This document shows, piece after piece, positions 22,381-38,696 of a stretch of 57,171 bases of DNA. A program made the position numbers and the translations under genes. Source of the DNA: a candidate division WWE3 bacterium RIFOXYD1_FULL_43_17. Lineage in GTDB: Bacteria; Patescibacteriota; WWE3; UBA101185; UBA10185. Each line of letters starts with the position of its first letter. Positions within the stretch are counted from its first letter, which is position 1. The stretch lies in NCBI GenBank assembly GCA_001773385.1, contig MEWJ01000020.1, positions 1 to 57,171 on the forward strand. Reading direction: 5' to 3'. The notes beneath the pieces are model-generated. The model searched no databases. It had not been told where the DNA came from and saw only the letters and a list, made by a program, of their open reading frames with translations.

Positions 22381-22413
22381 AGGTATGTTATCACAAGTTG
22401 AAGACGCCTCTGG

Positions 22414-24099
22414 TCATTCAACTTCCGTTCCAAATATTATTACACCGCCCTGAGAATACAAAGGGACACCTAAATGAGCGATAAAGAATCTGTATATATC
22501 CTCCCTCGAACTGATCCCCGGGTTTATCTCCTTAATACTTTCTAAAGAATCGTCGGAAATTTTATTAGAATAATAAATAAGATACTTTGGTCTGTTATTT
22601 AAAAACTCCTTTAGCCCTTCGTCTGAAATCAGACCACGTGAAAAGACATTGGTTTCGAAACCTGTCTCAAAATTTACTAAGTCCACTGGATTCATCAATA
22701 TATCCTCGTGGGATAATATCCAAAATATCGAGTAGAAGTCACCTTTAGGATACACCGCATAAGAAACACTGGTGGGAAATTTTTCCTTCACAAACGCAAT
22801 TTCGCTGGGCGGTTTATTTATATTTATAACTGGAATTTTTACCGTGAAAATAACAAAGTTTATAGCTATAAACAAGACAATGAAGAGAGTCTTTTGCCAT
22901 GTTTTTCCCGCCAAACTATATAAGTCCTGGACTAAGAATGAGTTGACTACCAGAATACAAAGGTATATTAATACCGACCACCTAACCAGTGTCCTGAACA
23001 CCGGTACTAAGTAATATAAGATATACGTAGGCGTGTAAATTTCTACACCGTTTACCGTAAACGATGGAGGTCCGGATATTAAAAGTATGCAAAGGATTAA
23101 AAAAAGACTGCGATAGATTGTAACCCTGTTAGCATAAACAGAATTGAATAATCCAAATTCCTTGTGTTTAAATTTTCTCATCAGTAAAAGCCACACAACT
23201 AGTGCGGCTCCGAAAATAAAATGCCAACCTAAGTAACTTCCAGCCATCTCTTGCTCTGTATAGTCGTCTGCAAGATAATATTTCGTGATTTCGATTTTCT
23301 TATGTACGTCTTCAGACAACTTTCCAAAAAATAGGGACTCCTTAGGGGGAATAAAGAAATACCACGGTCTAAAAGACAGGTTATACCAGTCTTCTACAGG
23401 CCTGAACACAACTTGCTTTTTTACAACAATCTCAGCATTCTGTACATCTTCGTAGTTTCCAAACAATGGAGTATTTACAAGGAACTGTTTCCCATAGACC
23501 GCTAAAAGCAAAGTCAAGATTGGGAGAACCAAGCAGATGGAATTGATGATAAATGATCTTACTGCGCGTTTGTATTCAACCCCAGCCAACATAATATTGA
23601 AGGCATTTAATAGAAGCGACACTATTAATGCAAAGAAACCGTAGTAATTGCTTATCATGAAAGAGGTGGCTACGAACAACCCGATCACAAGGGGTTTTGT
23701 GGCGCGCATGTAGAGAAAAAATGTAGCAGGAATAATAAATGTCATGTATAAAGCTGGCGTAACGGACTCTACCCTGTATATAAAATATATTGATGCGGAG
23801 TACAGCAAAGAAAATATTACTTGTAGGCTTCGGTGAATATTAAGTTTTCTGAACAACAAGTAACAAGCCGCAAAAGCTAAGAAGAATGCAACAATTACCA
23901 ACATATTATTTATGCAAACCGGATGCATGTATCTGTGCAAGAGACTGAATATAGTTTGAATTACAAAATCCGCATTTTTATCGGAAAGGTATATGTCGTC
24001 AGCGGGTCTAATTAAATTTGAGAAATACTTAAAATGGTATGCCAGAGTGTGGGCACTGTCGTTATACTGAAAGATAATGAACTGACAAACTTTATACAT
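22414..24099 (-). CDS. Polytopic membrane protein, GT-C/YfhO-like architecture, unassigned
   Basis: 561 aa. About 10 helices followed by a ~130-aa soluble C-terminus. The call rests on architecture only. Confidence 0.45.
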   Translation of the reverse strand: MYKVCQFIIFQYNDSAHTLAYHFKYFSNLIRPADDIYLSDKNADFVIQTIFSLLHRYMHPVCINNMLVIVAFFLAFAACYLLFRKLNIHRSLQVIFSLLYSASIYFIYRVESVTPALYMTFIIPATFFLYMRATKPLVIGLFVATSFMISNYYGFFALIVSLLLNAFNIMLAGVEYKRAVRSFIINSICLVLPILTLLLAVYGKQFLVNTPLFGNYEDVQNAEIVVKKQVVFRPVEDWYNLSFRPWYFFIPPKESLFFGKLSEDVHKKIEITKYYLADDYTEQEMAGSYLGWHFIFGAALVVWLLLMRKFKHKEFGLFNSVYANRVTIYRSLFLILCILLISGPPSFTVNGVEIYTPTYILYYLVPVFRTLVRWSVLIYLCILVVNSFLVQDLYSLAGKTWQKTLFIVLFIAINFVIFTVKIPVININKPPSEIAFVKEKFPTSVSYAVYPKGDFYSIFWILSHEDILMNPVDLVNFETGFETNVFSRGLISDEGLKEFLNNRPKYLIYYSNKISDDSLESIKEINPGISSREDIYRFFIAHLGVPLYSQGGVIIFGTEVE

Positions 24100-24115
24100 T
24101 TGGTATTTTTGCGTT

Positions 24116-26392: not shown

Positions 26393-27089
26393 GAGAGAAT
26401 GCGGGGCCTAGCAACCGGTAAAGTACCTCTTCGAGCACCACATAGAGTCTAAGAAGCTTCTCGTTACTAGTCACGTAATACATAATATCTGGCATTTTGA
26501 AGCCCCTTTCTATATGTACGTCTCTAAAACCCAGGTCTTTCAAAACTGATCTTATACCCTTAATAGTGGTACCGTGCATTGGTAGTTTCCCTCTAGAAAA
26601 ATAGTTTAGTGAGCACCTGTTAGGAAGGGTAAATACTAACGTACCGTCTTTGCTTAACACTCTGTATATATCCCCCAGTATCCATTTCCAATTGCTATTA
26701 TACTTAAGCACTCTTATGCAGCTTATAAAATCAAATTTATCTGCCTCATATTCTATACCCTTCGAGATATCGTTGGTTTTAACTTCTCTAAAGCCGGGGT
26801 ATCCCGTGAGACTTTCTTTTACTACCGACACCATAGTGTCCGCTATGTCGACTCCATAATAACTAACGGAATCAAAAGAAATTAAGTTTTTCGAAATTCT
26901 TCCCGAACCCACACCAATATCTAACACACACACCTTGTTAGGATGCATCTCTTCAACAACTCCCTCTAACGTTTTTCTTACAAACGTTTCCTCGAAGTTG
27001 CTGATAACCTTCATTCCAGGGTTAACCCAGCCTTTTGAGTATTCCCCTCCAAGCTCATTATAAAATTTCTTTATAGAACTATTATTCAT
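26364..27089 (-). CDS. Class I SAM-dependent methyltransferase
   Basis: 241 aa. VLDIGVGSGRIS, FDFISCIRVLKY and LSKDGTLVFTLPN. Confidence 0.75.
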   Translation of the reverse strand: MNNSSIKKFYNELGGEYSKGWVNPGMKVISNFEETFVRKTLEGVVEEMHPNKVCVLDIGVGSGRISKNLISFDSVSYYGVDIADTMVSVVKESLTGYPGFREVKTNDISKGIEYEADKFDFISCIRVLKYNSNWKWILGDIYRVLSKDGTLVFTLPNRCSLNYFSRGKLPMHGTTIKGIRSVLKDLGFRDVHIERGFKMPDIMYYVTSNEKLLRLYVVLEEVLYRLLGPAFSRGLYITCRK

Positions 27090-28047
27090 AAGTGACTCCT
27101 GCTAAATTATTTACATACCTTAGGAGCTGATCAACATGCGTAAACTGAACTTTTCCAAAACTACCTACTTTATTTAGATTAAGACTGCTGTACCAATCAG
27201 ACACAGAATTAGAGTTTTCTAGTAGCTGGAGCGCATTTAGTGCCCAGCCGTTTCCTAAAAAATTTAAAACATTGTATAAATTCAGGTAATTATTTATTTC
27301 ATCTTCCTGTAAATTTTTTGTCTCCAGATAACAATCTCCCAATGTAGCAAAGATGACATGGTCAATACGACTTTCCGTTTCTGGCTTAAAAGGCAACTTT
27401 ACATCGTTGTTAAAAGGAGGCACAAAAAATGAGGTACAACTCCTTATTACTACCTTGTCTCCTGATATGTAAAAACCTCCGTATTTTAAGACACTATTTA
27501 ACAAGGGCGTTTTAAAATTACCGCCGGGTGCAAATATGCAAAAGGTCTTATTATTTACTTTGAATGAAATTCCATGAAAAATGCCAAAACCCTGCTTTTG
27601 CAAATCGTACGTAATAAAATTTGATAGTATTTTTCCTGTAGGCCAAATATTACCAATTTCAAATCTAATCAGTAAATGGTAGAAAAAGTTTACTAACATT
27701 TTTCTGGTTTTATAGTTATATTGAAGTTTGAGAGGTATGCCTAAAAATTTCCTAAAATAGTAGACGCAACAATTGTCTACAAGAAACCATCTGTATTTTA
27801 TTTTAAAACTATTAGGAATAATAATTTTATTAGAGACCTCGTAGGTATACTTACTTTGCATTGAATGCGTATTACGAGCAACGTCGTCGTAATTAGCGAT
27901 GCTATCTTTATCGACATCGAAAAAATAAAAACCGTTAATTCGCCCAGATTTTGTGCTCAATTCGAATAGATTTGGTGCAAAAAAGTTCATATATATTTTT
28001 TTGGTACGCCCAAATAATAGAATACGCAAAGTATAACCTAATAGCAA
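27082..28047 (-). CDS. Hypothetical protein with HPr-kinase-like core and degenerate P-loop
   Basis: 321 aa with a TTG start in the track; ATG 27990 (MNFFAPN) is likelier. FHGISFKVNNKTFCIFAPGGNFKTPLLNSVLKYGGFYISGDKVVI aligns by eye with the HprK catalytic segment HG..V.....L..G.SG.GKS..AL.L...G..L..DD.V.I. Confidence 0.35.
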   Translation of the reverse strand: MLLGYTLRILLFGRTKKIYMNFFAPNLFELSTKSGRINGFYFFDVDKDSIANYDDVARNTHSMQSKYTYEVSNKIIIPNSFKIKYRWFLVDNCCVYYFRKFLGIPLKLQYNYKTRKMLVNFFYHLLIRFEIGNIWPTGKILSNFITYDLQKQGFGIFHGISFKVNNKTFCIFAPGGNFKTPLLNSVLKYGGFYISGDKVVIRSCTSFFVPPFNNDVKLPFKPETESRIDHVIFATLGDCYLETKNLQEDEINNYLNLYNVLNFLGNGWALNALQLLENSNSVSDWYSSLNLNKVGSFGKVQFTHVDQLLRYVNNLAGVTYE

Positions 28048-28113
28048 ACAAATATGGCTATATTGTCAGCTAGACAAAATTATCCTGATTACGTAACCAG
28101 TTAGCTGTTGTAA

Positions 28114-29103
28114 TTATTTTTTTGAAAAGACGTCGAGCACGAACTTAGAAAACAACAGCTTTATTAAATACAAGATCTTCTTAAGGAACACCCCAATGCT
28201 ATTTAAAATCGAATAGTCCTGCTTGTACCTGTTAAGAAAAGAAAGCACTTCTTCCGGCTTTATTACGGAAATGCTAACAGCGTTATTCTGTCTACGGGGA
28301 TCCTTAGATACCACAAAGCATAGAAAGTCTGAGTCTGAGTACGCCACTACACTGCAGCCACACTTTTCAATCAACAGTTTTAAAGTATGTGCCGAAAAAT
28401 TTTGCAAATGTTCGTAATACAAGAAATTAGTAAGACTGAACCCTCCGGATGGTTTAAGTATGTTAGGAACCTCAATATAAAAAAGGCCGTTCTCGCCTAA
28501 TAATTTAATCGCCTTATTAATAAAAACTACCGGGTCCGCCACATGTTCTAATACGTGGCTACAAATAATAACATCATATTTAACACCCCTGTCACTAAAC
28601 GCTTCCAGGCTAGTATTGATAATATCAATACCGAACATCTTTTTTCCAAGTGACGATGCCTCTTTTGAAGGTTCCAGTCCGTATACGTCACACTTATAAA
28701 GCTCTCTCAATACGTATAAATTTTCACCATACCCACATCCAATATCTATAACTCTCTTGCCGAAAATGTCGATATTAAGTTTGGAAAGTATCTTATTAAT
28801 ATGCGCTCTTCCAAGACTGCGAAACATCGACCTGCTAACAAATCTACTTCTTGCAGAAAGGTTTGGAGATTTCTTGAAGTACCCGTCTTTCATATAGTAG
28901 TTCTCTAAATAGTTATTACCTCTTGGTATGAAAACAAGACCGCATTTGTTACACAAATAATTGTGGGTGCTGCAAAATTTAGGAAATAATTGAGAAAAAT
29001 CCGATTCGTTTCCGCATAAGAAACAGGTGGGGTTTTTAAAACTTTTCACGCTCGTGTACCTCCTTGAACTGTCTGCAAGTAGCGCGCACCCACCCATCTT
29101 CAA
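28114..29103 (-). CDS. SAM-dependent methyltransferase with N-terminal four-Cys zinc ribbon
   Basis: 329 aa. CFLCGN...CNKCGLVF ribbon, then VIDIGCGYGENL and YDVIICSHVLEHV. The track start overlaps the upstream gene by 68 nt; GTG 29049 is an alternative. Confidence 0.75.
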   Translation of the reverse strand: MKMGGCALLADSSRRYTSVKSFKNPTCFLCGNESDFSQLFPKFCSTHNYLCNKCGLVFIPRGNNYLENYYMKDGYFKKSPNLSARSRFVSRSMFRSLGRAHINKILSKLNIDIFGKRVIDIGCGYGENLYVLRELYKCDVYGLEPSKEASSLGKKMFGIDIINTSLEAFSDRGVKYDVIICSHVLEHVADPVVFINKAIKLLGENGLFYIEVPNILKPSGGFSLTNFLYYEHLQNFSAHTLKLLIEKCGCSVVAYSDSDFLCFVVSKDPRRQNNAVSISVIKPEEVLSFLNRYKQDYSILNSIGVFLKKILYLIKLLFSKFVLDVFSKK

Positions 29104-30073
29104 ACCAGTTGCTAAGAAAATTTTGATTGTCTAACAGCCTATCAATGCTGTCTAAATACTTATTATAAGTTTCCTCGTCAATTGAATTTAAAAAACTGAT
29201 CAAGCCTTCTAGGCTTTTAAATTTCCGATAATCAATGAAGCAGGTGGACGGAATAAAATTCTCTACGTTAGTAGCACCATAATATATTGGAACACAACGT
29301 GCCTTGAGGCAATCGAATATCTTCTCACTGATGTAGCCATCCAAATCCGTCGAATTTTCAAAGCACAGACAAAACTTAAATTTTGATAACAAATCGAGCT
29401 TATCATGCACTTCTCCCCTGTAACACTTGTATATCTTAAAACCAAAAATAGACTCTTTTAGCGAATATTTCTTTACTTTGTTCCATCCTTTACCCCAAAG
29501 TTCAAAAAGATTTAAAAGGTTTTTTTCAAAATAATCTATTGCACGAATTCTTTCAGAATATATTTCTTTTCCCATAGTAGATAATAAGGTAAAAGGCAAG
29601 AAAGGAAGTTTGTTTCCGTTGATAACACACAAAAACTTTTTATCGGAAAACGCATGTTCTTCTATTTGCTCGACCAAATCGGCTTGCTGGGTGTAAAACT
29701 TGAAATATCTCCTGTTGTCTACGAGTGAATCATCCCATGTAAAAACCGCATCAAAAAAACGGTGGAATATTTTGAAGTAGTTAAATGGGTTAATAATTGG
29801 AGGCTCATATAGATAGAGAATTTTTTTCACTTTAGAAAATATTAATTTTATGAAAAGCATTGGCTCTGTATAGGGAATGTCATGAATAACTATCAAATCG
29901 GTATTTTTTGCGGTACCAACGTCAAGCGTACTTAGCGATACTCCTTCTTTTATTAAGTACTCTCTTAGCTTGGCAAAACACGATAAATTGGGATCAATTG
30001 TTACATTAAACAAACCGTTATTTTTAAGTCGTTTGTCGTTAGACTTGTATATTAGAATATTTTTTATCGGCAC
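29036..30073 (-). CDS. GT10-like glycosyltransferase (alpha-1,3/4-fucosyltransferase family motif)
   Basis: 345 aa. FCLCFENSTDLDGYISEKIFDCLKARCVPIYYG matches the conserved GT10 motif F.L.FENS....Y.TEK.......VP.Y.G. Confidence 0.65.
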   Translation of the reverse strand: MPIKNILIYKSNDKRLKNNGLFNVTIDPNLSCFAKLREYLIKEGVSLSTLDVGTAKNTDLIVIHDIPYTEPMLFIKLIFSKVKKILYLYEPPIINPFNYFKIFHRFFDAVFTWDDSLVDNRRYFKFYTQQADLVEQIEEHAFSDKKFLCVINGNKLPFLPFTLLSTMGKEIYSERIRAIDYFEKNLLNLFELWGKGWNKVKKYSLKESIFGFKIYKCYRGEVHDKLDLLSKFKFCLCFENSTDLDGYISEKIFDCLKARCVPIYYGATNVENFIPSTCFIDYRKFKSLEGLISFLNSIDEETYNKYLDSIDRLLDNQNFLSNWFEDGWVRATCRQFKEVHEREKF

Positions 30074-30954
30074 TATTTTTTAACCCCGGAAACCAAGTAA
30101 AGAGCGGTGGTATATTTGTTACGTTGTAAATACATGTATATTCTACGCAAAATTTTATTCTTAAGTTTTTTACTCGTCGGGGGGATGACAAACGGAGTCA
30201 CTTTAATTTCTGAAAACCCAGAGTTTGCGTGCAGATTTCTTAAGAATTTTGGTGTAAAACTCAGCTCGTAACCAAAAAACTTATTCAAAACAACACTTTT
30301 AAGCAACTTCAAATGAACATACTCAAATATCTTCTTAAGAATTGGTAAAGACGGTATGTTTCTGAAAGAATTTAGAATCCACCAGAATGTGAAAGCCGGA
30401 ACAGTATTTAAAGATACTCCACCACGCTTTAGAATCCTATAAGATTCCCGGACAACCTCACCTGTGTCGGGTAGGTGTTCTATAACTCCTCCCCCGTATA
30501 TGAAATCCACTGTGTTGCTTAATAATGGTATGCTGCGGATATCACCGTGTATAAGAATATAGTTTTTTACACCATTTGAATCAAAGTATTCCTTAAGGAC
30601 CTGTAACATTGGGTAATTTATATCTATACCTACAAAGCTGCATTTATACTTGCTAACTATGTGATTACCTACAAATGACGGACCGCAGCCTATCTCCAAA
30701 TACACAGTGTCAGCAGAAAACTTATATGCTTGATCAAGGTAAAACATGTGCGATTGGAGTTTTTCTTCTTCAAATTCTTTAAGACTATTAGTTAAGTCGG
30801 AAAATGAATAGTTATAAATACTGCCCCATACTTTCACCGAGTCTCTACTTTTCATGTCATCAACGTTATCAACATTTAATAAGTGGTATATTCCGTCTTT
30901 TCCAAGCACTGTTTTAGAGAAATCGATTATTTTAGTTAAGTCAGATATCGTCAT
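30073..30954 (-). CDS. Class I SAM-dependent methyltransferase
   Basis: 293 aa. YLEIGCGPSFVG, VDFIYGGGVIEHL and LKRGGVSLNTVP. Confidence 0.7.
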   Translation of the reverse strand: MTISDLTKIIDFSKTVLGKDGIYHLLNVDNVDDMKSRDSVKVWGSIYNYSFSDLTNSLKEFEEEKLQSHMFYLDQAYKFSADTVYLEIGCGPSFVGNHIVSKYKCSFVGIDINYPMLQVLKEYFDSNGVKNYILIHGDIRSIPLLSNTVDFIYGGGVIEHLPDTGEVVRESYRILKRGGVSLNTVPAFTFWWILNSFRNIPSLPILKKIFEYVHLKLLKSVVLNKFFGYELSFTPKFLRNLHANSGFSEIKVTPFVIPPTSKKLKNKILRRIYMYLQRNKYTTALYLVSGVKK

Positions 30955-32084
30955 AAGTTCAGTTCCGCAAAAATTGTGTTGTAGTCAAATGACTTTGAGA
31001 ATTCAACACAGTTATTTCTATAATCCGAGTTTATTGCGGCACTCATAAGAAAAAGTAGCTCCTTCACAAAATCTTTGTAATTTATAATTACACCGCACCT
31101 TCGTTCAGAGATAATTTGGGCATTCCAAGGTACATCCGTTACTAGCACCGGTACACCGCAGGCAATATACTTCTTTAGCTTCCCTGGATCTGCATAATAA
31201 GTCCAAGTATCGAGCTCTCTAATATAAGGAGCTATGGCGACACACGATTTTGCGATTTCATTCTCAAGGTCAACGTCGTTCTCTATCTTCCCTGTGAAAG
31301 TGCAATACTCAAACACATTTAATTTCTTAGCCAGATTGACAAGCTCTTGCTTGTAACTACCATCTCCTATTATCTTAAAATTAAAATTTGGGATAGCATT
31401 ACGCAGTTTCGAAATCATGCTAATCACATACTGAACACCTTGCTTTTCAAGTAGATGCCCCATGAACACTAACGTGTATTTTTCACAATCACCGTAGTTG
31501 AACCTTGTAATCCTCTCAGCCCAAACCCCATACGGTACTACTTTATGGCTCTTGTACTCGCTTTCATGAATACCTAGATACGCTTCTCGCGCCTGAGCCA
31601 TTCTTGGCGACAAATCCCACATTTCATCGGCATTTTTGTAGCCTATTTTATTTACAAAATGATAGAAATAATTTTTAAAGATACTTTTGAATCTGCTTTT
31701 AGGCACAAAATCTACGGCCCAGTAGACGGTTCGGTCTACTTTATGTAACAGTCTAAAAAATAGACAAAAAATATTGCACAAGCCATCCATAGATATTGAA
31801 ACTGTCCAACTAGTTTTAGATTTAATCACCCAATAAGCTGTAAATATAAATTCTTTAACGTATAAGAAAAATTCCGGAAACTTGCTGTAATCACGAGAGC
31901 TGTACTCCTGGTATAAAACTCCTAATTTATACCACCTACAAGAACTTGTCCTTGTGGGAGCATCAGAAAAATCGTGAATGATGTGCATCACGTTATCAAA
32001 CTTTTCCCTGTTTAAGTAAATTACTAAGTCGTCGTCTGGTTGTGTCAAAAACTTATGAGCTACTATTAATATATTTTTTGCCAT
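30951..32084 (-). CDS. GT-B (GT4-like) glycosyltransferase, divergent N-terminal half
   Basis: 377 aa. VFMGHLLEKQGVQYVI, FKIIGDGSYKQEL and KKYIACGVPVLVTDV. Confidence 0.6.
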   Translation of the reverse strand: MAKNILIVAHKFLTQPDDDLVIYLNREKFDNVMHIIHDFSDAPTRTSSCRWYKLGVLYQEYSSRDYSKFPEFFLYVKEFIFTAYWVIKSKTSWTVSISMDGLCNIFCLFFRLLHKVDRTVYWAVDFVPKSRFKSIFKNYFYHFVNKIGYKNADEMWDLSPRMAQAREAYLGIHESEYKSHKVVPYGVWAERITRFNYGDCEKYTLVFMGHLLEKQGVQYVISMISKLRNAIPNFNFKIIGDGSYKQELVNLAKKLNVFEYCTFTGKIENDVDLENEIAKSCVAIAPYIRELDTWTYYADPGKLKKYIACGVPVLVTDVPWNAQIISERRCGVIINYKDFVKELLFLMSAAINSDYRNNCVEFSKSFDYNTIFAELNL

Positions 32085-32135
32085 ACCAAAAAGTTACCTA
32101 TTAGTGCAATAAACAAAATTAACACATCCAAAAAC

Positions 32136-32966
32136 CTATATAATTTTACGGTTTCTCAGAAAATTGAACAATCTAACTCTAGTTGAAGAATTCATCAGGT
32201 GCATAGATAAAAACTGTAAAATATTATAAACAACATCAACCGGACCTACACTGTAGCCCAACTTAGCTACCGCGTTCAGCCGCATCTTAAAAGTAAGCAG
32301 CTCTACCCTCCTTAAACTTTTGTTGCTCGTAGAATTCAAAAAAACTCTATATTTCAATAATCCCTTAGGTATGGACTTAAAATCATATTTCATCCCTAAT
32401 CTAAACCACATGTCTACATCTTCAGAAGGCGATTTAGTCTTGTCATAGTCCCCAACCTCTTTTATACACGCTGCTCTAATCAATACTGTCGGGTGAGCAA
32501 ACGGGCTGTATCTAAAAATTACTCTTTTTAGTGATTTTGAATCTGTGGGGTAGTGCCTATAGCCAATAACAACGCCGCTCTCATTAATAAGTTGAATGTC
32601 ATTTCCAACAACCGCCACTTGAGGATTTTCGCTCATAACTTTGGCCTGCATTTCCAGCCTTTCCGGGAGAGCAATGTCGTCAGCATCCATACGCGCTATA
32701 AACGTACCTTTCGCAACAGATATTCCTCTATTCAAAGAGCCGGCGATATTTAAGTTATTTTCGTTAACTAAGACTACAATCCTGCTATCTTTTTCTGCAT
32801 AAGATTTTATTATGTTGCCTGTGGAGTCCGTTGAGGCATCGTTTACTATGATCAATTCAAAATCTTTTAGAGTTTGATTCAAAATACTATCAATCGCCTC
32901 ACCGATATACTTTTCAGCATTATAAGCGGGCATTATTACAGAAATTAACGGTGCTTTGTCTGTCAT
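32136..32966 (-). CDS. GT2-family glycosyltransferase
   Basis: 276 aa. ISVIMPAYNAEKYIGEAIDSILNQT, IVNDASTDST and MDADDIALPERL. Confidence 0.8.
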   Translation of the reverse strand: MTDKAPLISVIMPAYNAEKYIGEAIDSILNQTLKDFELIIVNDASTDSTGNIIKSYAEKDSRIVVLVNENNLNIAGSLNRGISVAKGTFIARMDADDIALPERLEMQAKVMSENPQVAVVGNDIQLINESGVVIGYRHYPTDSKSLKRVIFRYSPFAHPTVLIRAACIKEVGDYDKTKSPSEDVDMWFRLGMKYDFKSIPKGLLKYRVFLNSTSNKSLRRVELLTFKMRLNAVAKLGYSVGPVDVVYNILQFLSMHLMNSSTRVRLFNFLRNRKII

Positions 32967-33006
32967 AATAGTGTCCGGTTTATTTTACCACCGGAAAAAG
33001 AAATCA

Positions 33007-34072: not shown

Positions 34073-34732
34073 TTATTGTACTACAACGGTGGGCTTTTCA
34101 GCCTTTGCCACAAGAGTTTGGCTTAAAAAGGAAATAAAGTGGGGCGGTTGGGCAATTCTGTATTTAACCGTCACCGGATGGTAAAGACCTAACCAAAAAC
34201 CTTTTACCTGAGCTTTGGAAAATCCGGATTTACTAAAAAGCGTTTCGATAGACCGCTTTGTGTACTCCCTTAAATGAATACAGTCACCGAGAAGTTCATC
34301 TTTTCCAAGTAACATGGGAAACTCCGGAAATTTTCCGGTAGCCAAAGTCCGCAGCCATCTTCCTATCCTGAATAAATTGGGCGTAAAGACGTAGGCTGTA
34401 CCCCCGGGCTTTAATACGCGGTACATTTCGTTTACAAAGGTTAGGTCGTCCTCAACATGTTCCAGCACGTCAAAATTTATAACAATGTCAAAGGAGTTAT
34501 CAGGAAAACTTAAATTGTCCTTTTTCGTAATGTTAAAAGAAAATGAATTTTTGTTTCCGGGCTTTCTTCCGTCAATGATGTCGCAGGCCGAAACCTTTGC
34601 TCCGCGTTTTACCAACTCCGAAGTGGTATCTCCGCTGCCGCATCCTATATCTAAAACATTTTTGTTCTTGAAATCTATTTTGTCTAAAAATTTGAGAAAA
34701 TCCAGATAGTAGTAATCGGTCTTCATTTCCAT
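34073..34732 (-). CDS. Class I SAM-dependent methyltransferase
   Basis: 219 aa. VLDIGCGSGDTT, FDIVINFDVLEHV and LKPGGTAYVFTPN. First gene of the 34732-to-19794 minus-strand run. Confidence 0.8.
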   Translation of the reverse strand: MEMKTDYYYLDFLKFLDKIDFKNKNVLDIGCGSGDTTSELVKRGAKVSACDIIDGRKPGNKNSFSFNITKKDNLSFPDNSFDIVINFDVLEHVEDDLTFVNEMYRVLKPGGTAYVFTPNLFRIGRWLRTLATGKFPEFPMLLGKDELLGDCIHLREYTKRSIETLFSKSGFSKAQVKGFWLGLYHPVTVKYRIAQPPHFISFLSQTLVAKAEKPTVVVQ

Positions 34733-34738
34733 TTTTCC

Positions 34739-34744
34739 ATTGTA
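34739..34744 (-). promoter_or_regulatory. -10-like hexamer 6 nt upstream of ATG 34732
   Basis: The minus strand reads TACAAT then GGAAAA then ATG. The -35 is poor. Overlaps the plus-strand -35 of the island promoter. Confidence 0.25.
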
Positions 34745-34769
34745 CTACCGTACCCGCTTTTGCTATACT
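34740..34769 (+). promoter_or_regulatory. Sigma70-like promoter for the first island unit
   Basis: TTGTAC (34740-34745), 18-nt spacer, TATACT (34764-34769). Gives a ~28-nt leader to ATG 34804. Confidence 0.3.
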
Positions 34770-34803
34770 ACAGGCATAAAAATCGGAATGAAAGGGAGGG
34801 CGA

Positions 34804-35049
34804 ATGTACGATTTTTTCTTCTTTACGTTAGAGGCATTTTGTATAGCACTGGAACGACTGCGCAAGAGCGACCGGAGTTGGTACCACTGCTCCGAAAAGC
34901 TCATTATCAGCTTTCACGAGGGCTGTGACGCCGATTTCCTGATAGGCGAGCTTGCATTATCGGGAGTATCGGGTTGCTCTTACAGACTTGAACGTCCGGA
35001 CAGGAAGAAGGGAGGAACTGAATTCAAGGGTCACGTACGGATCGAGTAA
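34804..35049 (+). CDS. Hypothetical 81-aa protein (island ORF A); the region could instead be a non-coding leader
   Basis: ATG preceded by AAGGGAGGG 3 nt upstream. No recognisable motif. Overlaps the upstream TTG-start extension (34952..35098) of the 35099 reading frame. Confidence 0.3.
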   Translation: MYDFFFFTLEAFCIALERLRKSDRSWYHCSEKLIISFHEGCDADFLIGELALSGVSGCSYRLERPDRKKGGTEFKGHVRIE

Positions 35050-35098
35050 TGCATCTCCTTTTTCAGGCACTTTACTGCACAGAAAGGCAAGGGAGGAA

Positions 35099-35320
35099 AT
35101 GTATTTATATTTTGGTTCGCCCGATGATTTGCGCAGAGCAATGAAAGTCGGGGAAAAGGTGCACGTGTTTGAAAGTCAGCACTACACCGTAGACGCGGAA
35201 AAAAACCGGATAACTTTTGACTGTGATTATCCGGAAAAAGTCCGCGCCTTTATAGCAGCTCTGAAGCACGTTAACTCCTGCCCTGACAGGCAGCCCATCT
35301 GCTTTAACCCGGCTCACTAG
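35099..35320 (+). CDS. Hypothetical 73-aa protein (island ORF B)
   Basis: Internal ATG of ORF 34952..35320, directly preceded by AAGGGAGGAA. Followed by strong terminator 35345..35381. No recognisable motif. Confidence 0.45.
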   Translation: MYLYFGSPDDLRRAMKVGEKVHVFESQHYTVDAEKNRITFDCDYPEKVRAFIAALKHVNSCPDRQPICFNPAH

Positions 35321-35344
35321 TAATATTTTATTAATTGAGCGTAA

Positions 35345-35381
35345 GCCCGTTGTTTTTACCAAAATACAACGGGCCTTTTTT
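35345..35381 (+). terminator. Rho-independent terminator ending the first island transcription unit
   Basis: GCCCGTTGT (35345-35353) pairs with ACAACGGGC (35366-35374), followed by CTTTTTT. Confidence 0.7.
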
Positions 35382-35402
35382 GTCCGCACGGATCCGTATG
35401 AT

Positions 35403-35431
35403 TTGAAAATACCCCACCATGCTGTTAGAAT
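35403..35431 (+). promoter_or_regulatory. Near-consensus sigma70-like promoter for the second island unit
   Basis: TTGAAA (35403-35408), 17-nt spacer ending in TGt, TAGAAT (35426-35431). Gives a ~33-nt leader with an SD before ATG 35471. Confidence 0.5.
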
Positions 35432-35470
35432 CCCATGAAGAAAGATAATCCACAAAAAGGAGAGAAAAAT

Positions 35471-35779
35471 ATGGACGGTGTAATCAGGCTGTTGAGAGAC
35501 GGCGAGTTCGGCTATATCCGCGGACAAGAAATCTGTAAAAGCAGCGACTGTGAGTTTTATGTAAACAGAACCACAGTATGTTACCAAAACCAAACTGATA
35601 CCCACAATATTATGGTTAAACGGTGCGGAGAGTATCTTCACGCAGCGACATCCGATATCGACGATGCTGCTTGTGCCGAAGTGACGCCGGAACAACTCTT
35701 AACCAGGGACTATATTCCGGTAATAAAGGACGACGGATATCTATCCAAAGGGTTCGAACCATACATAACAAGGGGGTGA
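35471..35779 (+). CDS. Hypothetical 102-aa Cys-containing protein (island ORF C)
   Basis: Internal ATG of ORF 35435..35779, preceded by AAGGAGAG 6 nt upstream. Lies downstream of the predicted promoter 35403..35431, so ATG 35435 would fall upstream of the TSS. N-terminus GVIRLLRDGEFGYIRG. Confidence 0.5.
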   Translation: MDGVIRLLRDGEFGYIRGQEICKSSDCEFYVNRTTVCYQNQTDTHNIMVKRCGEYLHAATSDIDDAACAEVTPEQLLTRDYIPVIKDDGYLSKGFEPYITRG

Positions 35780-35780
35780 C

Positions 35781-36023
35781 ATGAAACACTTTTTGTCCCG
35801 CGATAATGCGCTGACTGCCAAAGAGCATGTTCTTAAACTACTCAGAACTGAAGGATACAAAACAGAGTGTCTGGAAATCACTATTATTAAGGACAGGCAG
35901 GGGTTCTTCATCGAAGCATTGTCTGAAACAGACCCGCAAATGGTGAACCGCTTCAGGCACCTGTTCCGTGAATACATAAGAACGCTCAGGTCACGGATAA
36001 CAGTTCAGGTCGACGAAGGATGA
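35781..36023 (+). CDS. Hypothetical 80-aa protein (island ORF D)
   Basis: ATG lies 1 nt after the ORF C stop, with GGGGG 4 nt upstream. No recognisable motif. Confidence 0.55.
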   Translation: MKHFLSRDNALTAKEHVLKLLRTEGYKTECLEITIIKDRQGFFIEALSETDPQMVNRFRHLFREYIRTLRSRITVQVDEG

Positions 36024-36026
36024 GCC

Positions 36027-36320
36027 ATGAAATACAAGCTGAAGGACCTTCCCAGGAATACTGTGGCGTTCGCTTCTCCCAAAGCGTTGCTGGTCTACAA
36101 AGGTGGCTTGTACATAAACGTTAAAGCGGAAGTGACCCTGACATGTAACCCGGCAACCGGAAAAACAATGCGGGTAAGAGTTATGGACAAGAAAGCGATA
36201 ATCGCCAGCTGCACCATACCTCACGACCTTGAGGTTCCGGTACTCGATAACTGGGTCATAGTAGGCATGAGTTTCTGTCCGGCTGAGATAGAAAAAAGCG
36301 ATGTCGGATATTCAAACTAG
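36027..36320 (+). CDS. Hypothetical 97-aa protein (island ORF E), paralog of ORF F
   Basis: ATG lies 3 nt after the ORF D stop, with a GAAGGA SD. Shares LP.N...F.SP.......G.L.IN and V.VG..F.P.AE blocks with 36337..36645. Confidence 0.55.
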   Translation: MKYKLKDLPRNTVAFASPKALLVYKGGLYINVKAEVTLTCNPATGKTMRVRVMDKKAIIASCTIPHDLEVPVLDNWVIVGMSFCPAEIEKSDVGYSN

Positions 36321-36336
36321 GGGAAAGGAGGAAAAA

Positions 36337-36645
36337 ATGACGGACAGGCCAAGTGTTAGGATGTCTCTATTAGAGCTACCTACAAATTGGAGGGTTTTCG
36401 TTTCACCGGGGTCGTTTTATAAGAGTGGTGGCAGATTGTTTATAAATCCCAACTCTCAAATAAACGTTAAACCTGATCGAAACTGCGTTGTTCAAGTTAC
36501 CCGCCTGGAACAAGGTTTTTTGGTAAATATGAGCACATTGCCAAGGAATCTGAGGTACATGGAAGTCACCGAAAAAGTCACCGTCGGAAATAACTTCATA
36601 CCGCTGGCTGAAGAGGGGTTATTTAAGATTGTCGACTCCTTGTGA
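36337..36645 (+). CDS. Hypothetical 102-aa protein (island ORF F), paralog of ORF E
   Basis: Internal ATG of ORF 36301..36645, with a perfect AGGAGG 5 nt upstream and no overlap with the ORF E stop. Followed by hairpin 36655..36689 and a T-tract. Confidence 0.55.
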   Translation: MTDRPSVRMSLLELPTNWRVFVSPGSFYKSGGRLFINPNSQINVKPDRNCVVQVTRLEQGFLVNMSTLPRNLRYMEVTEKVTVGNNFIPLAEEGLFKIVDSL

Positions 36646-36654
36646 AAATGCTCA

Positions 36655-36696
36655 GAGCCGCGACGTTTAATAAAATAAACCCGCGGCTTACTTTTT
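36655..36696 (+). terminator. Putative terminator ending the second island transcription unit
   Basis: GAGCCGCG (36655-36662) pairs with CGCGGCTT (36682-36689, terminal G-U). The 19-nt A/T-rich loop is long. Followed by ACTTTTT. Confidence 0.45.
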
Positions 36697-36699
36697 ACT

Positions 36700-36792
36700 A
36701 AATGCGTATTCTACTTTTGTACTCAAATGCGTACTCTACTTTTGTACTCAAATGAGCACCACTTTTTCTAAATGAGTGCTCTACTCTTTTTT
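36700..36792. repeat. Four head-to-tail 20-25-nt direct repeats in the convergent intergenic region
   Basis: Units: AAATGCGTATTCTACTTTTGTACTC (36700-36724), AAATGCGTACTCTACTTTTGTACTC (36725-36749, 1 mismatch), AAATGAGCACCACTTTTTCT (36750-36769), AAATGAGTGCTCTACTCTTTTTT (36770-36792). The last unit overlaps the radical SAM stop codon. GAGCAC (36754) and GTGCTC (36776) form an inverted pair. Confidence 0.6.
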
Positions 36793-38391
36793 AGCAGCAG
36801 CACTTCCGAACATACTCTTGATTGCGTTTCCCCAAAACTTCGGAGAGATCCAATTAACGCGTGTTTGTTCTTTATCAAAGTCCAGTAAGTGCCCTATTAA
36901 CTTCCACGCAGAATAACCTAAAAATTTGATGTCACTCCAATTTCTTATAGACAATATTTTTCTAAAAATATACTGAGGAGTAAAAAAAGAAGAATACAAA
37001 GATTGGGTCAACTCGTACAACCGTTCGTTTGAAAAAGGTATTTTCATAACCGGAGCTCTCATATCAAACTTCTCGTAGTCCTTCGCACCGACCTGCAACC
37101 AATCATTTTCCAAACACTCTTTGTATAAAGGAGTTCCGGGATAAGGAATCACGATTGTTGCCTGCATGGTATCTACATAGCCTTTTTTAAATAAGTCTTT
37201 CGCCAAATCTATGGTGTTCTGAGCCATTTCTTCGGTTTCCCACGGATACCCAAGCATTACCGTAACATGAGGCTCCAATCCTGCCTTTTTGGCCATTTTG
37301 GCACCTTCTGCAATCTCTTCTACCAGTAAGCCCTTATCCAGCCTATCCAAAGTGACCTGGTTCGCCGACTCCATCCCGTACAAAATAAATCTAAAGTTGG
37401 CTTTGCCCATTAAGTCATAATATTCTGAGGTAAGTGCGTTCAAACGCATATTACATCCGAAAACAACTTTTTTGTTATACCCGGACTCAATTAACAGCTC
37501 GCAGAACTTTTTCAAAGGTGGGCCGATGAATAAAGTTCCCGCGTCATCAAATATTTCTTTTACTCCGTAGTTGTCGACGACATGTTTTACCTCGGCAAAA
37601 AGTCTTTCAGGAGAAAATCTTCTGTAAAATCCTTTGGGATTTAAAGTATGATCCCAAACACAAAATGTACATCTGTTCCACCAACAATCTCTGCCTGAAT
37701 ACATGTAGGTCGCCGGTGTGTATTTATAATTCCCGTTCGCATACGCGTAAAGTTTCCATTTCGTAAGGTCGCGGTCAACAAATGGAAGATCATCGAGGTT
37801 GTGCTGTAACTCCAAAGGACCGCTCTGGAAGTACGCTTCTTCTCCGGTTATTCCGGATTTGTGCAGTTTTAGCCACTTAGGATCTACCGATACTTTCGGG
37901 TCTCCTTTTCTTCCGTAAATTCCTCCGGGTAAGTAGCTATTGTTCTTTATCGCATCGGCCATGTCGCTTAAAAGAAAATCGTAATCACCACCTGTGATTA
38001 TGTAGTCGACCTTACAGGCATCCAGCGTTTCTATGGGGTTCCATGTAACGTGGTCCCCTACCAAAATCACCGCCATCTCCGGAAATTTTTCTTTTAGTTC
38101 GTCGATAATTTTCCAGTGAAACTTCAAAACCGGTGCTTTGGTCTCCATCATCAGATAATCGGGCTTTTCTTTTTCCAGCTCTGACAGCCATTCCGTGTAA
38201 GTTTTCTTCTCGGCTATACCGTCACTCCAGACCACGTCGTATCCGCGTTCTTTGGCCAGAGAGGCCGCGTACGCCGGAACCATGGGGTAAATGTATGTGG
38301 GAGCGTTGAAATACTGAAACTGCCTGTTCTGGGATAATAAAGGAACTCCTTTGTACTGGTCTATTGGAGGATACCCGATAAGAATTTTCAC
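36781..38391 (-). CDS. B12-binding-domain radical SAM enzyme (class B type)
   Basis: 536 aa with a GTG start. N-terminal Rossmann-like cobalamin-binding-type region (DYLMMETK, VILVGDHVTWNP, IITGGDYDF). Cluster motif SGRDCWWNRCTFCVW. Downstream IFDDAGTLF and FILYGMESANQ resemble the radical SAM core. Confidence 0.75.
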   Translation of the reverse strand: MKILIGYPPIDQYKGVPLLSQNRQFQYFNAPTYIYPMVPAYAASLAKERGYDVVWSDGIAEKKTYTEWLSELEKEKPDYLMMETKAPVLKFHWKIIDELKEKFPEMAVILVGDHVTWNPIETLDACKVDYIITGGDYDFLLSDMADAIKNNSYLPGGIYGRKGDPKVSVDPKWLKLHKSGITGEEAYFQSGPLELQHNLDDLPFVDRDLTKWKLYAYANGNYKYTPATYMYSGRDCWWNRCTFCVWDHTLNPKGFYRRFSPERLFAEVKHVVDNYGVKEIFDDAGTLFIGPPLKKFCELLIESGYNKKVVFGCNMRLNALTSEYYDLMGKANFRFILYGMESANQVTLDRLDKGLLVEEIAEGAKMAKKAGLEPHVTVMLGYPWETEEMAQNTIDLAKDLFKKGYVDTMQATIVIPYPGTPLYKECLENDWLQVGAKDYEKFDMRAPVMKIPFSNERLYELTQSLYSSFFTPQYIFRKILSIRNWSDIKFLGYSAWKLIGHLLDFDKEQTRVNWISPKFWGNAIKSMFGSAAAKKE

Positions 38392-38397
38392 CTGTTT

Positions 38398-38403
38398 AGT
38401 ATA
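38398..38403 (-). promoter_or_regulatory. -10-like hexamer 6 nt upstream of GTG 38391 (radical SAM gene)
   Basis: The minus strand reads TATACT then AAACAG then GTG. It sits in a 47-nt gap after the ferredoxin stop. Confidence 0.25.
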
Positions 38404-38438
38404 TATAAAGGGACGCCCAATCTCAAAGTTGAGGTAAA

Positions 38439-38696
38439 TTATTTCTTCTCAGGATAGAGTACGTTGCCTTCCAGATCTTCAACAATTATCGCAGTAGTGG
38501 GACAGGACTTCGCCCCTTTTATAATTTTTTCAGCTTCATCCCACGTACCTTCTTTCGCGTACACAATTCCATCGGAGTCGAGGTCAAAAGTTTCGGGCGC
38601 GTGAATTATGCAGGTCGCCGCACTTATGCACAGCTCATTTATAACTTTAATAATTACTTTCGAGTTTGGATTTTTATATGTAACTACTTCTTTCAT
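38439..38696 (-). CDS. Small single-cluster ferredoxin (3Fe-4S/4Fe-4S type)
   Basis: 85 aa. CISAATCIIHAPETFDLDSDG ... SCPTTAI fits the C-x5-C...CP pattern of small ferredoxins that serve as redox partners. Confidence 0.7.
   Translation of the reverse strand: MKEVVTYKNPNSKVIIKVINELCISAATCIIHAPETFDLDSDGIVYAKEGTWDEAEKIIKGAKSCPTTAIIVEDLEGNVLYPEKK

Follow-up and report, generated by a model that had tools for sequence, protein, structure and literature searches.

A clade-specific island of small orphan genes on the opposite strand of a WWE3 surface-glycan locus

Introduction

In Bacteroides the small cytoplasmic proteins UpxY and UpxZ are encoded at the edge of a strain-variable surface-polysaccharide operon. 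Orphan immunity arrays of polymorphic toxins are made up of small, soluble alpha/beta or beta proteins that evolve fast, and have a strain-variable gene content. CPR bacteria form a large uncultured share of bacterial diversity, and surface glycans are believed to play a central part in their attached, host-dependent way of life.

The window analysed here is a whole stretch of 57,171 nucleotides (57 kb) of a contig from the WWE3 bacterium RIFOXYD1_FULL_43_17. It contains a plus-strand island of ∼2 kb, with six small genes (O1 to O6), which was compared with described systems. The island shares with UpxY/UpxZ-type regulators small proteins that border a strain-variable polysaccharide operon, but its genes lie on the opposite strand and are not the first ones of the operon, it has six or seven families instead of two and gave no Pfam match at E values up to 1, a search that covers the NusG/KOW and UpxZ models if these are in the library. 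Orphan immunity arrays resemble it in their small, soluble, fast-evolving proteins and variable gene content; unlike them, the island has no toxin gene, toxin-tip fragment or known immunity family, and its families are confined to one clade and site and are not spread by transfer. Phage morons and ORFan early-gene cassettes share with the island short, tight ORFs with strong Shine-Dalgarno (SD) sites, an autonomous promoter and terminator, distinct composition, insertion within an existing operon and rapid turnover; the predicted fold of O6 bears a marginal resemblance to uncharacterised phage ORFans only. The island differs from these in that no phage genes, att sites or integrase lie nearby, no sequence relatives were found in IMG/VR, PHROGs or GenBank phages, and it is fixed at one chromosomal site and vertical through a whole clade. 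Clusters of RiPP precursors with class-B radical SAM enzymes likewise place small ORFs beside a B12-binding radical SAM enzyme, but here the genes are convergent, the enzyme is widespread alone and the products, of 73-102 aa, are folded domains.

WWE3 genomes are ∼0.88 Mb and glycosyltransferase-rich, and 39-53% of CPR proteins are without any family (PMC3812714). The island is a well-delimited test case, with seven new small-protein families, a clear operon structure, conserved control DNA and signs of selection, and its insertion, which split a glycan operon, is datable. The families appear new only in the sense that they could not be related to any described family or system; no mechanism is implied. 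If the island acts in glycan regulation or adaptation, or in phage conflict, it would show how lineage-specific small proteins join core pathways in streamlined genomes, a significance limited by the families being found in one narrow WWE3 clade.

Results

Layout of the island and its flanks

The island lies between a class I methyltransferase gene on the left (34073-34732, minus strand) and a B12-binding radical SAM (rSAM) gene on the right (36781-38391, minus strand). The methyltransferase gene is the first gene of a variable glycan operon and is divergent from O1; its place is taken by a 136-146-aa membrane protein or a GT2 in other lineages. The rSAM enzyme is HpnJ-like, scoring under the curated cut-off, and its gene, which ends a conserved glycan operon, is the island's constant neighbour.

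The original prediction described six plus-strand ORFs of 73-102 aa, and their coordinates were reproduced exactly. Unit 1 consists of O1 (34804-35049; 81 aa, soluble, SD AAGGGAGG, a family without known relatives) and O2 (35099-35320; 73 aa, ferredoxin-like beta-alpha-beta-beta-alpha-beta). Unit 2 consists of O3 (35471-35779; 102 aa, acidic), O4 (35781-36023; 80 aa, mostly basic), O5 (36027-36320; 97 aa, beta-rich) and O6 (36337-36645; 102 aa, beta-rich), the last being the final island gene in all cases and convergent with the rSAM gene. The gaps of 1, 3 and 16 nt given for unit 2 were correct, and the SD strings quoted for the ORFs, including GGGGG, GAAGGA and AGGAGG, were all found. The maximum 19-residue Kyte-Doolittle mean was ≤1.2 in the window's proteins and no family motif was found in the six products, in agreement with the claim that they have neither a TM helix nor an assignable motif.

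The surroundings were also as described, with glycan genes alone as neighbours. ORFs of at least 120 aa in 19794-57167 are on the minus strand, with a long-start version of O2 as the sole exception, and the large ORFs scanned against Pfam were glycan-pathway genes or had no match. For Pfam, the contig was covered by the window ORFs over 0-26 kb and by the tags of a near-identical locus, L001, over ∼26-45 kb. An antisense ORF of 196 aa (35105-35695) lies opposite the plus-strand ORFs. No tRNA genes were present in the window, and no Rfam model matched anywhere in it at the gathering score.

Promoters and terminators

Two sigma70-like promoters and two hairpin-plus-T-tract terminators had been predicted. 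Both promoter motifs are present at the predicted sites. A consensus scan by itself yielded 4 promoter sites where 5.3 were expected, which is no more than chance would give; P1 and P2 are considered credible because their -10 regions are near-invariant in lineages with saturated synonymous sites. P1, of unit 1 (34740-34769, plus strand), reads TTGTAC-18-TATACT with an upstream TG (extended -10) and is divergent from the methyltransferase gene, which starts at 34732 on the minus strand. Its -10 region (TTTG-N-TA-N-ACT) and ∼45 nt upstream are kept in L009, L013, L014 and L018, irrespective of the gene on the left. Relative to L013, the window carries a 31-nt deletion just upstream of P1. P2 (35403-35431, plus strand) reads TTGAAA-17-TAGAAT with an extended -10 TG, a 10/12 match, and together with the conserved 5' UTR and SD of unit 2 spans 35403-35470. 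The string TGCTGTTAGAATCCCA of the P2 region is identical in 19 loci, including L013 and L025, in which O3 is lost.

The intrinsic terminator of unit 1, T1 (35345-35382, plus strand), is a hairpin GCCCGUUG...CAACGGGC followed by U6. The hairpin (35345-35374) has a folding energy of -16.0 kcal/mol (z -4.1) and its stem is invariant in 5 lineages. In the clade whose rSAM identity is at least 88%, the T1 motif occurs once after each O2 copy and twice in loci with a duplicated O1-X74-O2 unit (X74 being a further island family); it occurs nowhere else among 104 loci. An integron-like cassette array was considered and rejected: no integrase was found in the Pfam-covered part of the contig, and the T1 hairpin after O2 copies is the only repeat. 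The intrinsic terminator of unit 2, T2 (36655-36698, plus strand), is a hairpin AGCCGCG...CGCGGCU followed by a U-tract; the hairpin (36655-36689, then U5) has a folding energy of -16.7 kcal/mol (z -4.2), is invariant in 7 lineages, the distant L022 among them, and shows covariation in the form of a compensatory G:C to A:U stem change in L013. Read on the minus strand, the T2 hairpin is not followed by a U-tract. P1, T1, P2 and T2 are all more conserved than the island coding DNA, and the description of the island as a self-contained module with its own promoters and terminators is upheld.

Selection, turnover and paralogy

dN/dS was 0.10-0.33 for all six ORFs in their plus-strand frames, and orthologues with reading frames and SD sites kept were found in at least eight diverged lineages. 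Judged by these comparisons, the six ORFs are real genes under purifying selection. The island proteins evolve at 3-10 times the rate of the flanking enzymes, and duplication, loss, fusion and pseudogenisation were all seen among them; rSAM itself evolves ∼10 times more slowly than they do, with 90-93% amino acid identity among island-bearing lineages and a dN of ∼0.05.

Orthologues of O1 (dN/dS 0.11-0.23) are 30-73% identical in 7 lineages, with an extra paralogue in L016/L027. O2 (dN/dS 0.10-0.32) is present in every island variant seen, contains the near-invariant motif QHYTVDAE and is fused to family X74 in L022. O3 (dN/dS 0.13-0.31) is lost in L013/L025. O4 is the most conserved island protein (53-68% identity) and occurs only in the clade whose rSAM identity is at least 88%; it carries a nonsense mutation in L018, is intact in L019 and has an 8-aa in-frame deletion in L003. 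O5 is absent in L009/L056. O3 occurs without O4 in L018, L022 and L028, and O4 without O3 in L013/L025.

O3, O5 and O6 are paralogues, O3 being distant from the other two. O5 and O6 were matched by BLASTP (E 1e-8) and by hhalign (probability 99.3%, E 1.5e-20), and O3 and O6 by hhalign over the full length (probability 94%, E 1.5e-7). The pI is 4.7 for O3 and 8.9 for O4, and ranges from 4.4 to 10.1 among O5/O6 orthologues.

Homology and fold searches

No match for the island proteins was found in Pfam, NCBIfam, PHROGs, PADLOC or PDB sequences, and the products are orphans as described. PHROGs gave no match for any of the six and PADLOC 0 families for the six and X74. Scans of IMG/VR with O6, O4 and O2 profiles detected no relative, and 50,697 phage records searched by tblastn with O6 yielded nothing below E 0.6. 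No integrase, transposase or phage genes were found by Pfam in 0-26 kb of the window or among the L001 tags for ∼26-45 kb. The island proteins lacked enzyme motifs in every library searched and showed neither a DNA-binding nor a known regulatory domain. The O5/O6 family had 10 true matches in an exhaustive HMMER search of 1.84 billion representative proteins, and among 5.8 billion proteins there were 13 clusters for O6 and only 9 for O2.

The AF2 model of O2 (pLDDT 90.3, pTM 0.78; DSSP E-H-E-E-H-E) has the topology of a ferredoxin-like alpha/beta sandwich, a predicted likeness at the level of fold only and not of family membership. Its best Foldseek match in the PDB was the 61-aa chain of the lanthipeptide protease entry 4zoq (TM 0.60/0.70, rmsd 2.4 Å, E 0.027), which we take to be the prodomain. 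HMA, RRM and PII domains came next (TM 0.35-0.57), so the fold is generic. The closest described domains are thus small ferredoxin-like ones (subtilase I9-type prodomain, HMA, RRM, PII/ACT), but sequence identity is 10-20%, no CxxC metal site or RNP motifs were seen on inspection and Pfam gave no match. From residue patterns judged by eye, O1 and O4 may be similar to the O2 fold. The O6 model was of moderate quality (pLDDT 71 overall, 81-87 for residues 11-70) and had no fold match in the PDB. In BFVD it matched only three uncharacterised actinophage ORFans, all marginally (E 1.1e-3 to 1.5e-2, TM 0.44-0.61; best match E 1.1e-3, TM 0.61).

Distribution and insertion into the glycan operon

Relatives of rSAM numbered 304 in GTDB genomes. 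The island family HMMs matched 6 of 80 rSAM-bearing species, namely L025-L028, L030 and L056, whose rSAM is at least 80% identical to that of the window; in the other 74 species-level loci rSAM and, where annotated, its ferredoxin occur without island families. In most of the island-free loci read, same-strand glycan genes continue after rSAM. L031 has a 149-aa membrane-protein gene 2 nt after rSAM, and in island genomes that gene lies beyond the island. Since the glycan operon is uninterrupted outside the clade, the island is an old clade-specific insertion and not a recent transfer; outgroups run the same operon without it, so it is not required for the pathway, and the rSAM enzyme is independent of it.

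All O5/O6-family members with readable context adjoin rSAM in convergent orientation. The left flank has been exchanged repeatedly, and the rSAM side stays attached while synonymous sites are saturated. The low-GC 20-33 kb block beside the island is replaced between strains. In L022 the island genes overlap or abut, with no T1 or P2, and in L029 and L035 the island's site holds unrelated ORFans. Of the horizontal acquisition proposed originally, insertion and atypical composition stood; recent transfer did not, because the island occupies the same site throughout a WWE3 subclade with saturated synonymous sites and its raised GC3 is not fading.

Origin and possible role of the island

We put at about 0.9 the probability that the island is a vertically inherited accessory module of one narrow WWE3 clade, which was inserted, grew and split. 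On this account, the ancestor of a narrow WWE3 (Katanobacteria) subclade gained a short operon of roughly O1, X74-O2, O3 and O6, which entered an unbroken surface-glycan operon in opposite orientation, between its B12-radical-SAM gene and the gene that came next. That the ancestor was a single operon is suggested by L022. Tandem duplication, from O3 to O6 to O5 and, in some strains, of the O1-X74-O2 unit, then enlarged the island, as did the gain of O4. An internal terminator and promoter divided it, in the clade of the window, into two units, P1-O1-O2-T1 and P2-O3-O4-O5-O6-T2, which would be expressed from two extended -10 sigma-70-type promoters with strong SD sites and ended by two intrinsic terminators. 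The products would be soluble single-domain proteins of 70-100 aa with no catalytic motifs, O2 ferredoxin-like and O3, O5 and O6 a triplicated beta-rich domain.

For function, it is tentatively suggested that these proteins are non-enzymatic binders (regulators, adaptors or inhibitors) targeting the surrounding glycan machinery or its expression, and that the insertion rewired the locus. Binder-type products are suggested by the generic ferredoxin-like fold of O2 and the lack of enzyme motifs and TM segments; the link to glycans is guilt by association, its sole basis being position on a glycan-biosynthesis contig. The conserved operon unit would now face convergent transcription from P2, the variable unit would start back-to-back with P1, and the recombining low-GC variable genes would be uncoupled from the conserved core. 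Against regulators or binders count the lack of any DNA-binding or known regulatory domain and the individual dispensability of O3, O4 and O5, each missing or broken in some strains; the pI spread of O5/O6 argues against a conserved nucleic-acid-binding surface, and the ORFans of L029/L035 could mean that the site merely tolerates insertions. A bolder and rather improbable form is a CPR-specific small-protein system in which ferredoxin-like and triplicated beta-domain binders choose the glycan or protect against glycan-using phages. Control would run through protein-protein contacts and convergent/divergent transcription at the conserved/variable junction, which may be a birthplace or landing site of new genes, as the L029/L035 ORFan sets suggest.

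Among other explanations, domesticated phage or mobile-element cargo (a moron or early-gene cassette) at a hotspot beside hypervariable surface-glycan (receptor) genes is somewhat unlikely. Its products would serve in phage-host conflict, for example in superinfection exclusion or as anti-phage or anti-defence binders. Small packed ORFs with their own promoters and terminators, atypical composition, fast protein evolution with gain, loss and duplication, the actinophage matches of O6, the unrelated ORFan sets at the same site and the swapping of the adjacent 20-33 kb block would all suit such cargo. The O6 fold match is, however, marginal and to proteins themselves uncharacterised; no relative was found in IMG/VR (three families), PHROGs, PADLOC or, for O6, GenBank phages, nor any integrase, transposase or phage gene in the Pfam-covered part of the contig; and inheritance has long been vertical at one site, with a GC3 excess maintained and not decaying. 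It is unlikely that the genes are hitchhikers, ORFans whose cytoplasmic role has nothing to do with glycans or phages, at an insertion-tolerant site where synteny reflects only a narrow clade. The different ORFans of L029 and L035, the dispensability of individual genes and the large share of CPR proteins without a family (39-53%, PMC3812714) fit it, but it sits poorly with retention on the rSAM side despite repeated left-flank exchange and synonymous saturation, with purifying selection on all six genes, with very strongly conserved control DNA and with streamlined 0.88-Mb genomes.

The earlier suggestion that the proteins are substrates or partners of the convergent B12-radical-SAM enzyme, RiPP-like or carrier-protein, is disfavoured and very unlikely. 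Adjacency is constant and rSAM is weakly similar to RiPP maturases among many class-B rSAMs (ApyD E 2e-16, far below cut-off), but the enzyme lacks island families in 74/80 loci, evolves ∼10 times more slowly and lies in convergent orientation, O2 folds compactly (pLDDT 90) and is no leader-core peptide, and the alignments show no conserved Cys, C-terminal core or leader/core pattern. Toxin/antitoxin, defence or phage cargo had also been proposed, and searches of PADLOC, PHROGs, Pfam, NCBIfam, IMG/VR and GenBank phages gave such proposals no match. Type II toxin-antitoxin pairs, for example acidic O3 (pI 4.7) and basic O4 (pI 8.9) with a 1-nt gap, would account for small adjacent genes with 1-3-nt gaps; they are highly improbable, as O3 and O4 are not always together (L022, L028 and L018 against L013/L025), neither Pfam, NCBIfam nor PADLOC yielded a toxin-antitoxin family at E up to 1, and the island families occupy one site in one clade, unlike mobile toxin-antitoxin loci. 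Least credible and likewise disfavoured are non-functional ORFs, whether chance, a decaying remnant or the antisense of a minus-strand gene at 35105-35695. The long antisense ORF and the in-frame deletions or nonsense mutation in some strains are outweighed by dN/dS of 0.1-0.33 in plus-strand frames, by SD sites and frames kept across lineages and by the highly confident O2 model; the antisense ORF has no Pfam match, spans the conserved terminator and promoter and has counterparts of only 125 aa (L013) and 85 aa (L009). None of the grounds on which the original prediction could have failed (known families, lack of homologues, lack of purifying selection or ordinary composition) was borne out when tested.

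Base composition

The GC content of the island is 45.5% (CDS 46.3%), while the contig averages 40.3%; the island GC3 of 52.7% compares with 30-47.5% for genes of the contig. No other 2-kb stretch of the contig is as rich in GC (99.8th percentile), and the tetranucleotide distance of the island lies at the 95.5th percentile. Hand counts had correctly indicated a raised GC content but overestimated its value (48-52%), and the 18-37% given for the 20-32 kb block was too low, its genes having 32-39% GC. Strong SD sites and raised GC3 may be taken as signs of high expression. The GC3 excess over the flanks was about 11 points (8-14) in all seven lineages checked.

Island ORFs and genomic setting

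All six plus-strand ORFs of the original prediction (O1-O6, 73-102 aa, 34804-36645) were confirmed in the sequence, together with their SD strings and the gaps of 1, 3 and 16 nt. The block is an opposite-strand island, as from 19.8 to 57.2 kb all other ORFs of 120 aa or more are on the minus strand. The surroundings were also correctly read as glycan genes: every large contig ORF that matched Pfam belongs to a glycan pathway (GT1, GT2, GT4, PMT_2, Wzy_C, flippases, methyltransferases and dTDP-sugar enzymes). Integrase, transposase and phage genes were not found on the contig, and the window gave no tRNA gene and no Rfam match. An antisense ORF of 196 aa (35105-35695 (-)), lying over O2, terminator T1, promoter P2 and part of O3, was rejected as almost certainly spurious; it has no Pfam match, and antisense ORFs over O2 reach only 125 aa in L013 and 85 aa in L009 (L numbers denote compared loci in other genomes). 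Elsewhere in the window, a 183-aa ORF (49250-49801 (-)) is nested on the same strand inside a 702-aa ORF (47911-50019).

Homology searches and protein families

The six products are present in databases as hypothetical proteins, all from WWE3 bacterium RIFOXYD1_FULL_43_17 or sister genomes. Pfam, PHROGs, PADLOC and NCBIfam returned only sub-threshold noise for all six, and no TM-like segment was found in the window proteins, in agreement with the earlier statement that they carry no assignable motif or TM helix. Profile searches of PDB sequences with O1, O2, O3, O4, O5/O6 and an O3/O5/O6 superfamily had no match below E 0.02. A single concatenated profile of the six proteins gave no match in an index of 5.8 billion proteins; this null is a failure of the method, since the exact proteins are present in that collection. 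The O5/O6-family profile recovered 13 clusters among the 5.8 billion proteins, and the O2-family profile recovered 9. An exhaustive HMMER search of 1.84 billion representatives with the O5/O6 family gave 11 matches, one of which (P0067, a 2208-aa repeat protein, E 1e-5) was discarded as a low-complexity repeat artefact on reading its sequence. Relatives were found neither in IMG/VR viral contigs, using profiles of the O2, O4 and O6 families, nor in GenBank phage genomes by tblastn of O6.

On these searches the six products are orphans. The island was rated unrelated to any known kind because all membership tests against known systems failed; this distance reflects absent detectable similarity and is no demonstration of a new mechanism. 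ORFan clusters are frequent in CPR genomes. A literature search for WWE3 radical SAM enzymes with glycosyltransferases found only an unrelated phage paper. The WWE3 genome paper describes abundant glycosyltransferases and makes no mention of the island genes (PMC3812714).

O5 is a paralogue of O6 (BLASTP E 1e-8; hhalign probability 99%), and O3 joins them over its full length once distant members are added (hhalign probability 94%, E 1.5e-7). O1, O2, O4 and X74, a seventh island family of 74 aa, are mutually unrelated by hhalign (probability at most 10%), though their beta-alpha starts look alike. Gene content varies: O5 is missing from L009 and L056, O3 is missing from L013 and L025, and L016, L017 and L027 carry an additional O1-X74-O2 unit complete with its terminator. 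X74 and the O2 paralogue are distinct overlapping genes in these three loci (L016, 4931-5370) and are fused into a single 145-aa ORF in L022 (7250-7687), a hint that the two act jointly.

Promoters and terminators

Both predicted hairpin and T-tract terminators, T1 behind O1-O2 and T2 behind O3-O6, held up: each folds at about -16 kcal/mol (z about -4), with its U-tract on the plus strand. A consensus scan recovered the second of the two predicted promoters (P1 for O1-O2, P2 for O3-O6), but promoter-like sites were no commoner than in shuffled sequence, and the promoters are credible through conservation only. Across lineages with saturated synonymous sites, the T1 and T2 hairpins, the P1 -10 region, and the -35 and extended -10 of P2 (TGCTGTTAGAATCCCA) with its 5' UTR and SD are invariant or nearly so. 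In T2 of L013 a G:C pair is replaced by A:U, a compensatory change. The T1 motif was found in 22 of 104 loci and the P2 motif in 19, at the expected positions only, and P2 is kept even in loci without O3.

T2 has no U-tract on the minus strand, which leaves the radical SAM operon without an obvious intrinsic terminator and meeting convergent transcription. Immediately before P1 (34733-34770), the window lacks 31 nt that L013 has (9347-9487 (-)); this deletion created the TTGTAC -35 box of P1, where other lineages have TTTACT. A 25-bp tandem repeat of 2.7 copies (TACTTTTGTACTCAAATGCGTACTC) lies between T2 and the radical SAM stop codon (36689-36754) and is a window-specific expansion, as other lineages have about one copy.

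Selection and evolutionary rate

Orthologues of all six ORFs are present in diverged WWE3 genomes. The complete genome RAAC2_WWE3_1 (CP006914.1) has the island at about 101,391-103,425. Wherever dS was computable (NG86), dN/dS of the island genes was 0.10-0.33. Values of dN were 0.11-0.68 for the island proteins and 0.05-0.18 for the flanking enzymes, for which almost every comparison gave a dS of 1.2-3.9 or saturation. These rates place the island under purifying selection, with proteins evolving several-fold faster than the flanks. DNA identity is about 80-85% along the radical SAM gene and drops into a valley of 45-70% over the island. The pI of O5/O6 orthologues ranges from 4.4 to 10.1.

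Near-identical strains also differ within the island. O4 carries a nonsense mutation in L018 (about 6402-6690) and is intact in its near-identical groundwater counterpart L019 (4838-5077), and there are in-frame deletions of 6 aa in O1 (L001) and 8 aa in O4 (L003). These changes represent standing variation of island genes within populations.

Radical SAM loci and origin of the island

The gene convergent with O6 (36781-38391 (-), in the region 36781-38696) encodes a B12-binding, HpnJ-like radical SAM enzyme. It is widespread and highly conserved in glycan operons of WWE3, Roizmanbacteria and Microgenomates, and annotated WWE3 loci have an 85-aa ferredoxin gene ahead of it. When an alignment of this enzyme was scanned against one genome per GTDB species, 304 relatives emerged. 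The best 80 of the 304 loci (WWE3, Roizmanbacteria, Microgenomates) have identities from 91% to 62%. Only 6 of these 80 were matched by HMMs of the seven island families, each with a radical SAM protein at least 80% identical. Most of the remainder have more glycan genes after the radical SAM gene on the same strand. L031 (77% identity) has a 149-aa membrane-protein gene 2 nt downstream of it, and in island-bearing genomes this gene lies beyond the far side of the island. The uninterrupted outgroup operons and the displaced membrane-protein gene indicate that the island entered a continuous operon in an ancestor shared by one subclade, with vertical inheritance from then on.

Two more basal variants, L022 (O1, X74-O2, O3 and O6, with genes overlapping or abutting) and L028 (O2, O3 and O6), have no internal terminator or promoter, so the ancestral island was probably a single short operon, to which O4, O5 and the T1/P2 split were added later.

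All O5/O6-family members with readable context are directly beside the radical SAM gene and convergent with it. The left neighbour of the island varies (methyltransferase, membrane protein or GT2). At the same junction, past the end of the radical SAM gene, WWE3 loci L029 (7670-10570) and L035 (7769-10786) have unrelated ORFans; the L035 set includes two duplicated pairs (129/128 and 167/169 aa) that share the strand of the glycan genes. Pfam gave nothing for the junction ORFans of L029, L030 and L035, and PHROGs gave nothing meaningful, the strongest match being a 74-aa ORF of L030 to phrog_37532 (unknown function, E 0.008). Lineage-specific genes seem to have a hotspot at this junction.

Composition

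The hand-counted GC of 48-52% was too high, but the island, at 45.5% GC (CDS 46.3%, GC3 52.7%) versus 40.3% for the contig, is the most GC-rich 2-kb stretch of the contig (99.8th percentile; tetranucleotide distance at the 95.5th percentile). GC3 is about 8-14 points above the flanks in all seven lineages compared (window, L009, L013, L014, L016, L018 and L022). As synonymous sites are saturated between lineages, this excess is a maintained property, possibly caused by codon choice linked to expression or by a local bias, and is not an un-ameliorated transfer scar. The compared loci support an insertion into the operon; a recent horizontal acquisition is not supported, given the maintained GC3 and the vertical inheritance at one site.

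The low-GC block (19794-33000) has genes of 32-39% GC versus about 41% elsewhere and makes up the half of the glycan locus that varies between strains. Four of its large ORFs, at 19794-21980, 21973-22380, 22414-24099 and 24116-26392, had no Pfam match at E 1e-5.

Predicted structures

The O2 model (9-sequence alignment) had pLDDT 90.3, pTM 0.78 and a beta-alpha-beta-beta-alpha-beta topology. Its best PDB match was a 61-aa chain of the lanthipeptide protease entry 4zoq, which we take to be the prodomain (TM 0.60/0.70, rmsd 2.4 Å, E 0.027), followed by HMA, RRM and PII domains. O2 is predicted to adopt a generic ferredoxin-like fold, with no family implied. The O6 model (13 sequences) shows six short strands and one helix, at pLDDT 71 overall and 81-87 over residues 11-70. 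Foldseek found no meaningful match to it in the PDB and only three in BFVD. All three are uncharacterised and the two named ones come from actinobacteriophages: Rhodococcus phage Weasels2 (E 1.1e-3, TM 0.61) and Clavibacter phage CN1A (TM 0.59/0.62).

Interpretation

The island is a real module, self-contained, under selection and specific to one narrow clade; it encodes new small-protein families, and its insertion divided a glycan operon in two. Its products may be binders without enzymatic activity (regulators or adaptors) that are linked to the glycan machinery around them or to the transcription of that machinery. We give this reading a probability of about 0.35, on the constant place in an all-glycan supercluster of a streamlined genome, the binder-type folds and the divergent/convergent promoter geometry.

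A phage origin as conflict cargo would fit the moron-like architecture, the fast turnover of island genes, the hotspot behaviour of the junction and the marginal fold match to phage ORFans, but every sequence search against viral data came up empty, and we consider it somewhat unlikely. That the module is a hitchhiker unrelated to its neighbours is improbable. Direct tests went against two of the functional suggestions made earlier, substrates or partners of the radical SAM enzyme and toxin-antitoxin pairs, and both are disfavoured; so, likewise by direct tests, is the reading of the ORFs as non-genes.

Among the compared loci, many TPA metagenome bins with a CPR-type locus (L029, L033, L068, L076 and others) are titled 'uncultured Gammaproteobacteria', 'Saccharibacteria' or 'Bdellovibrionales'. 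Such titles are probably mislabelling.
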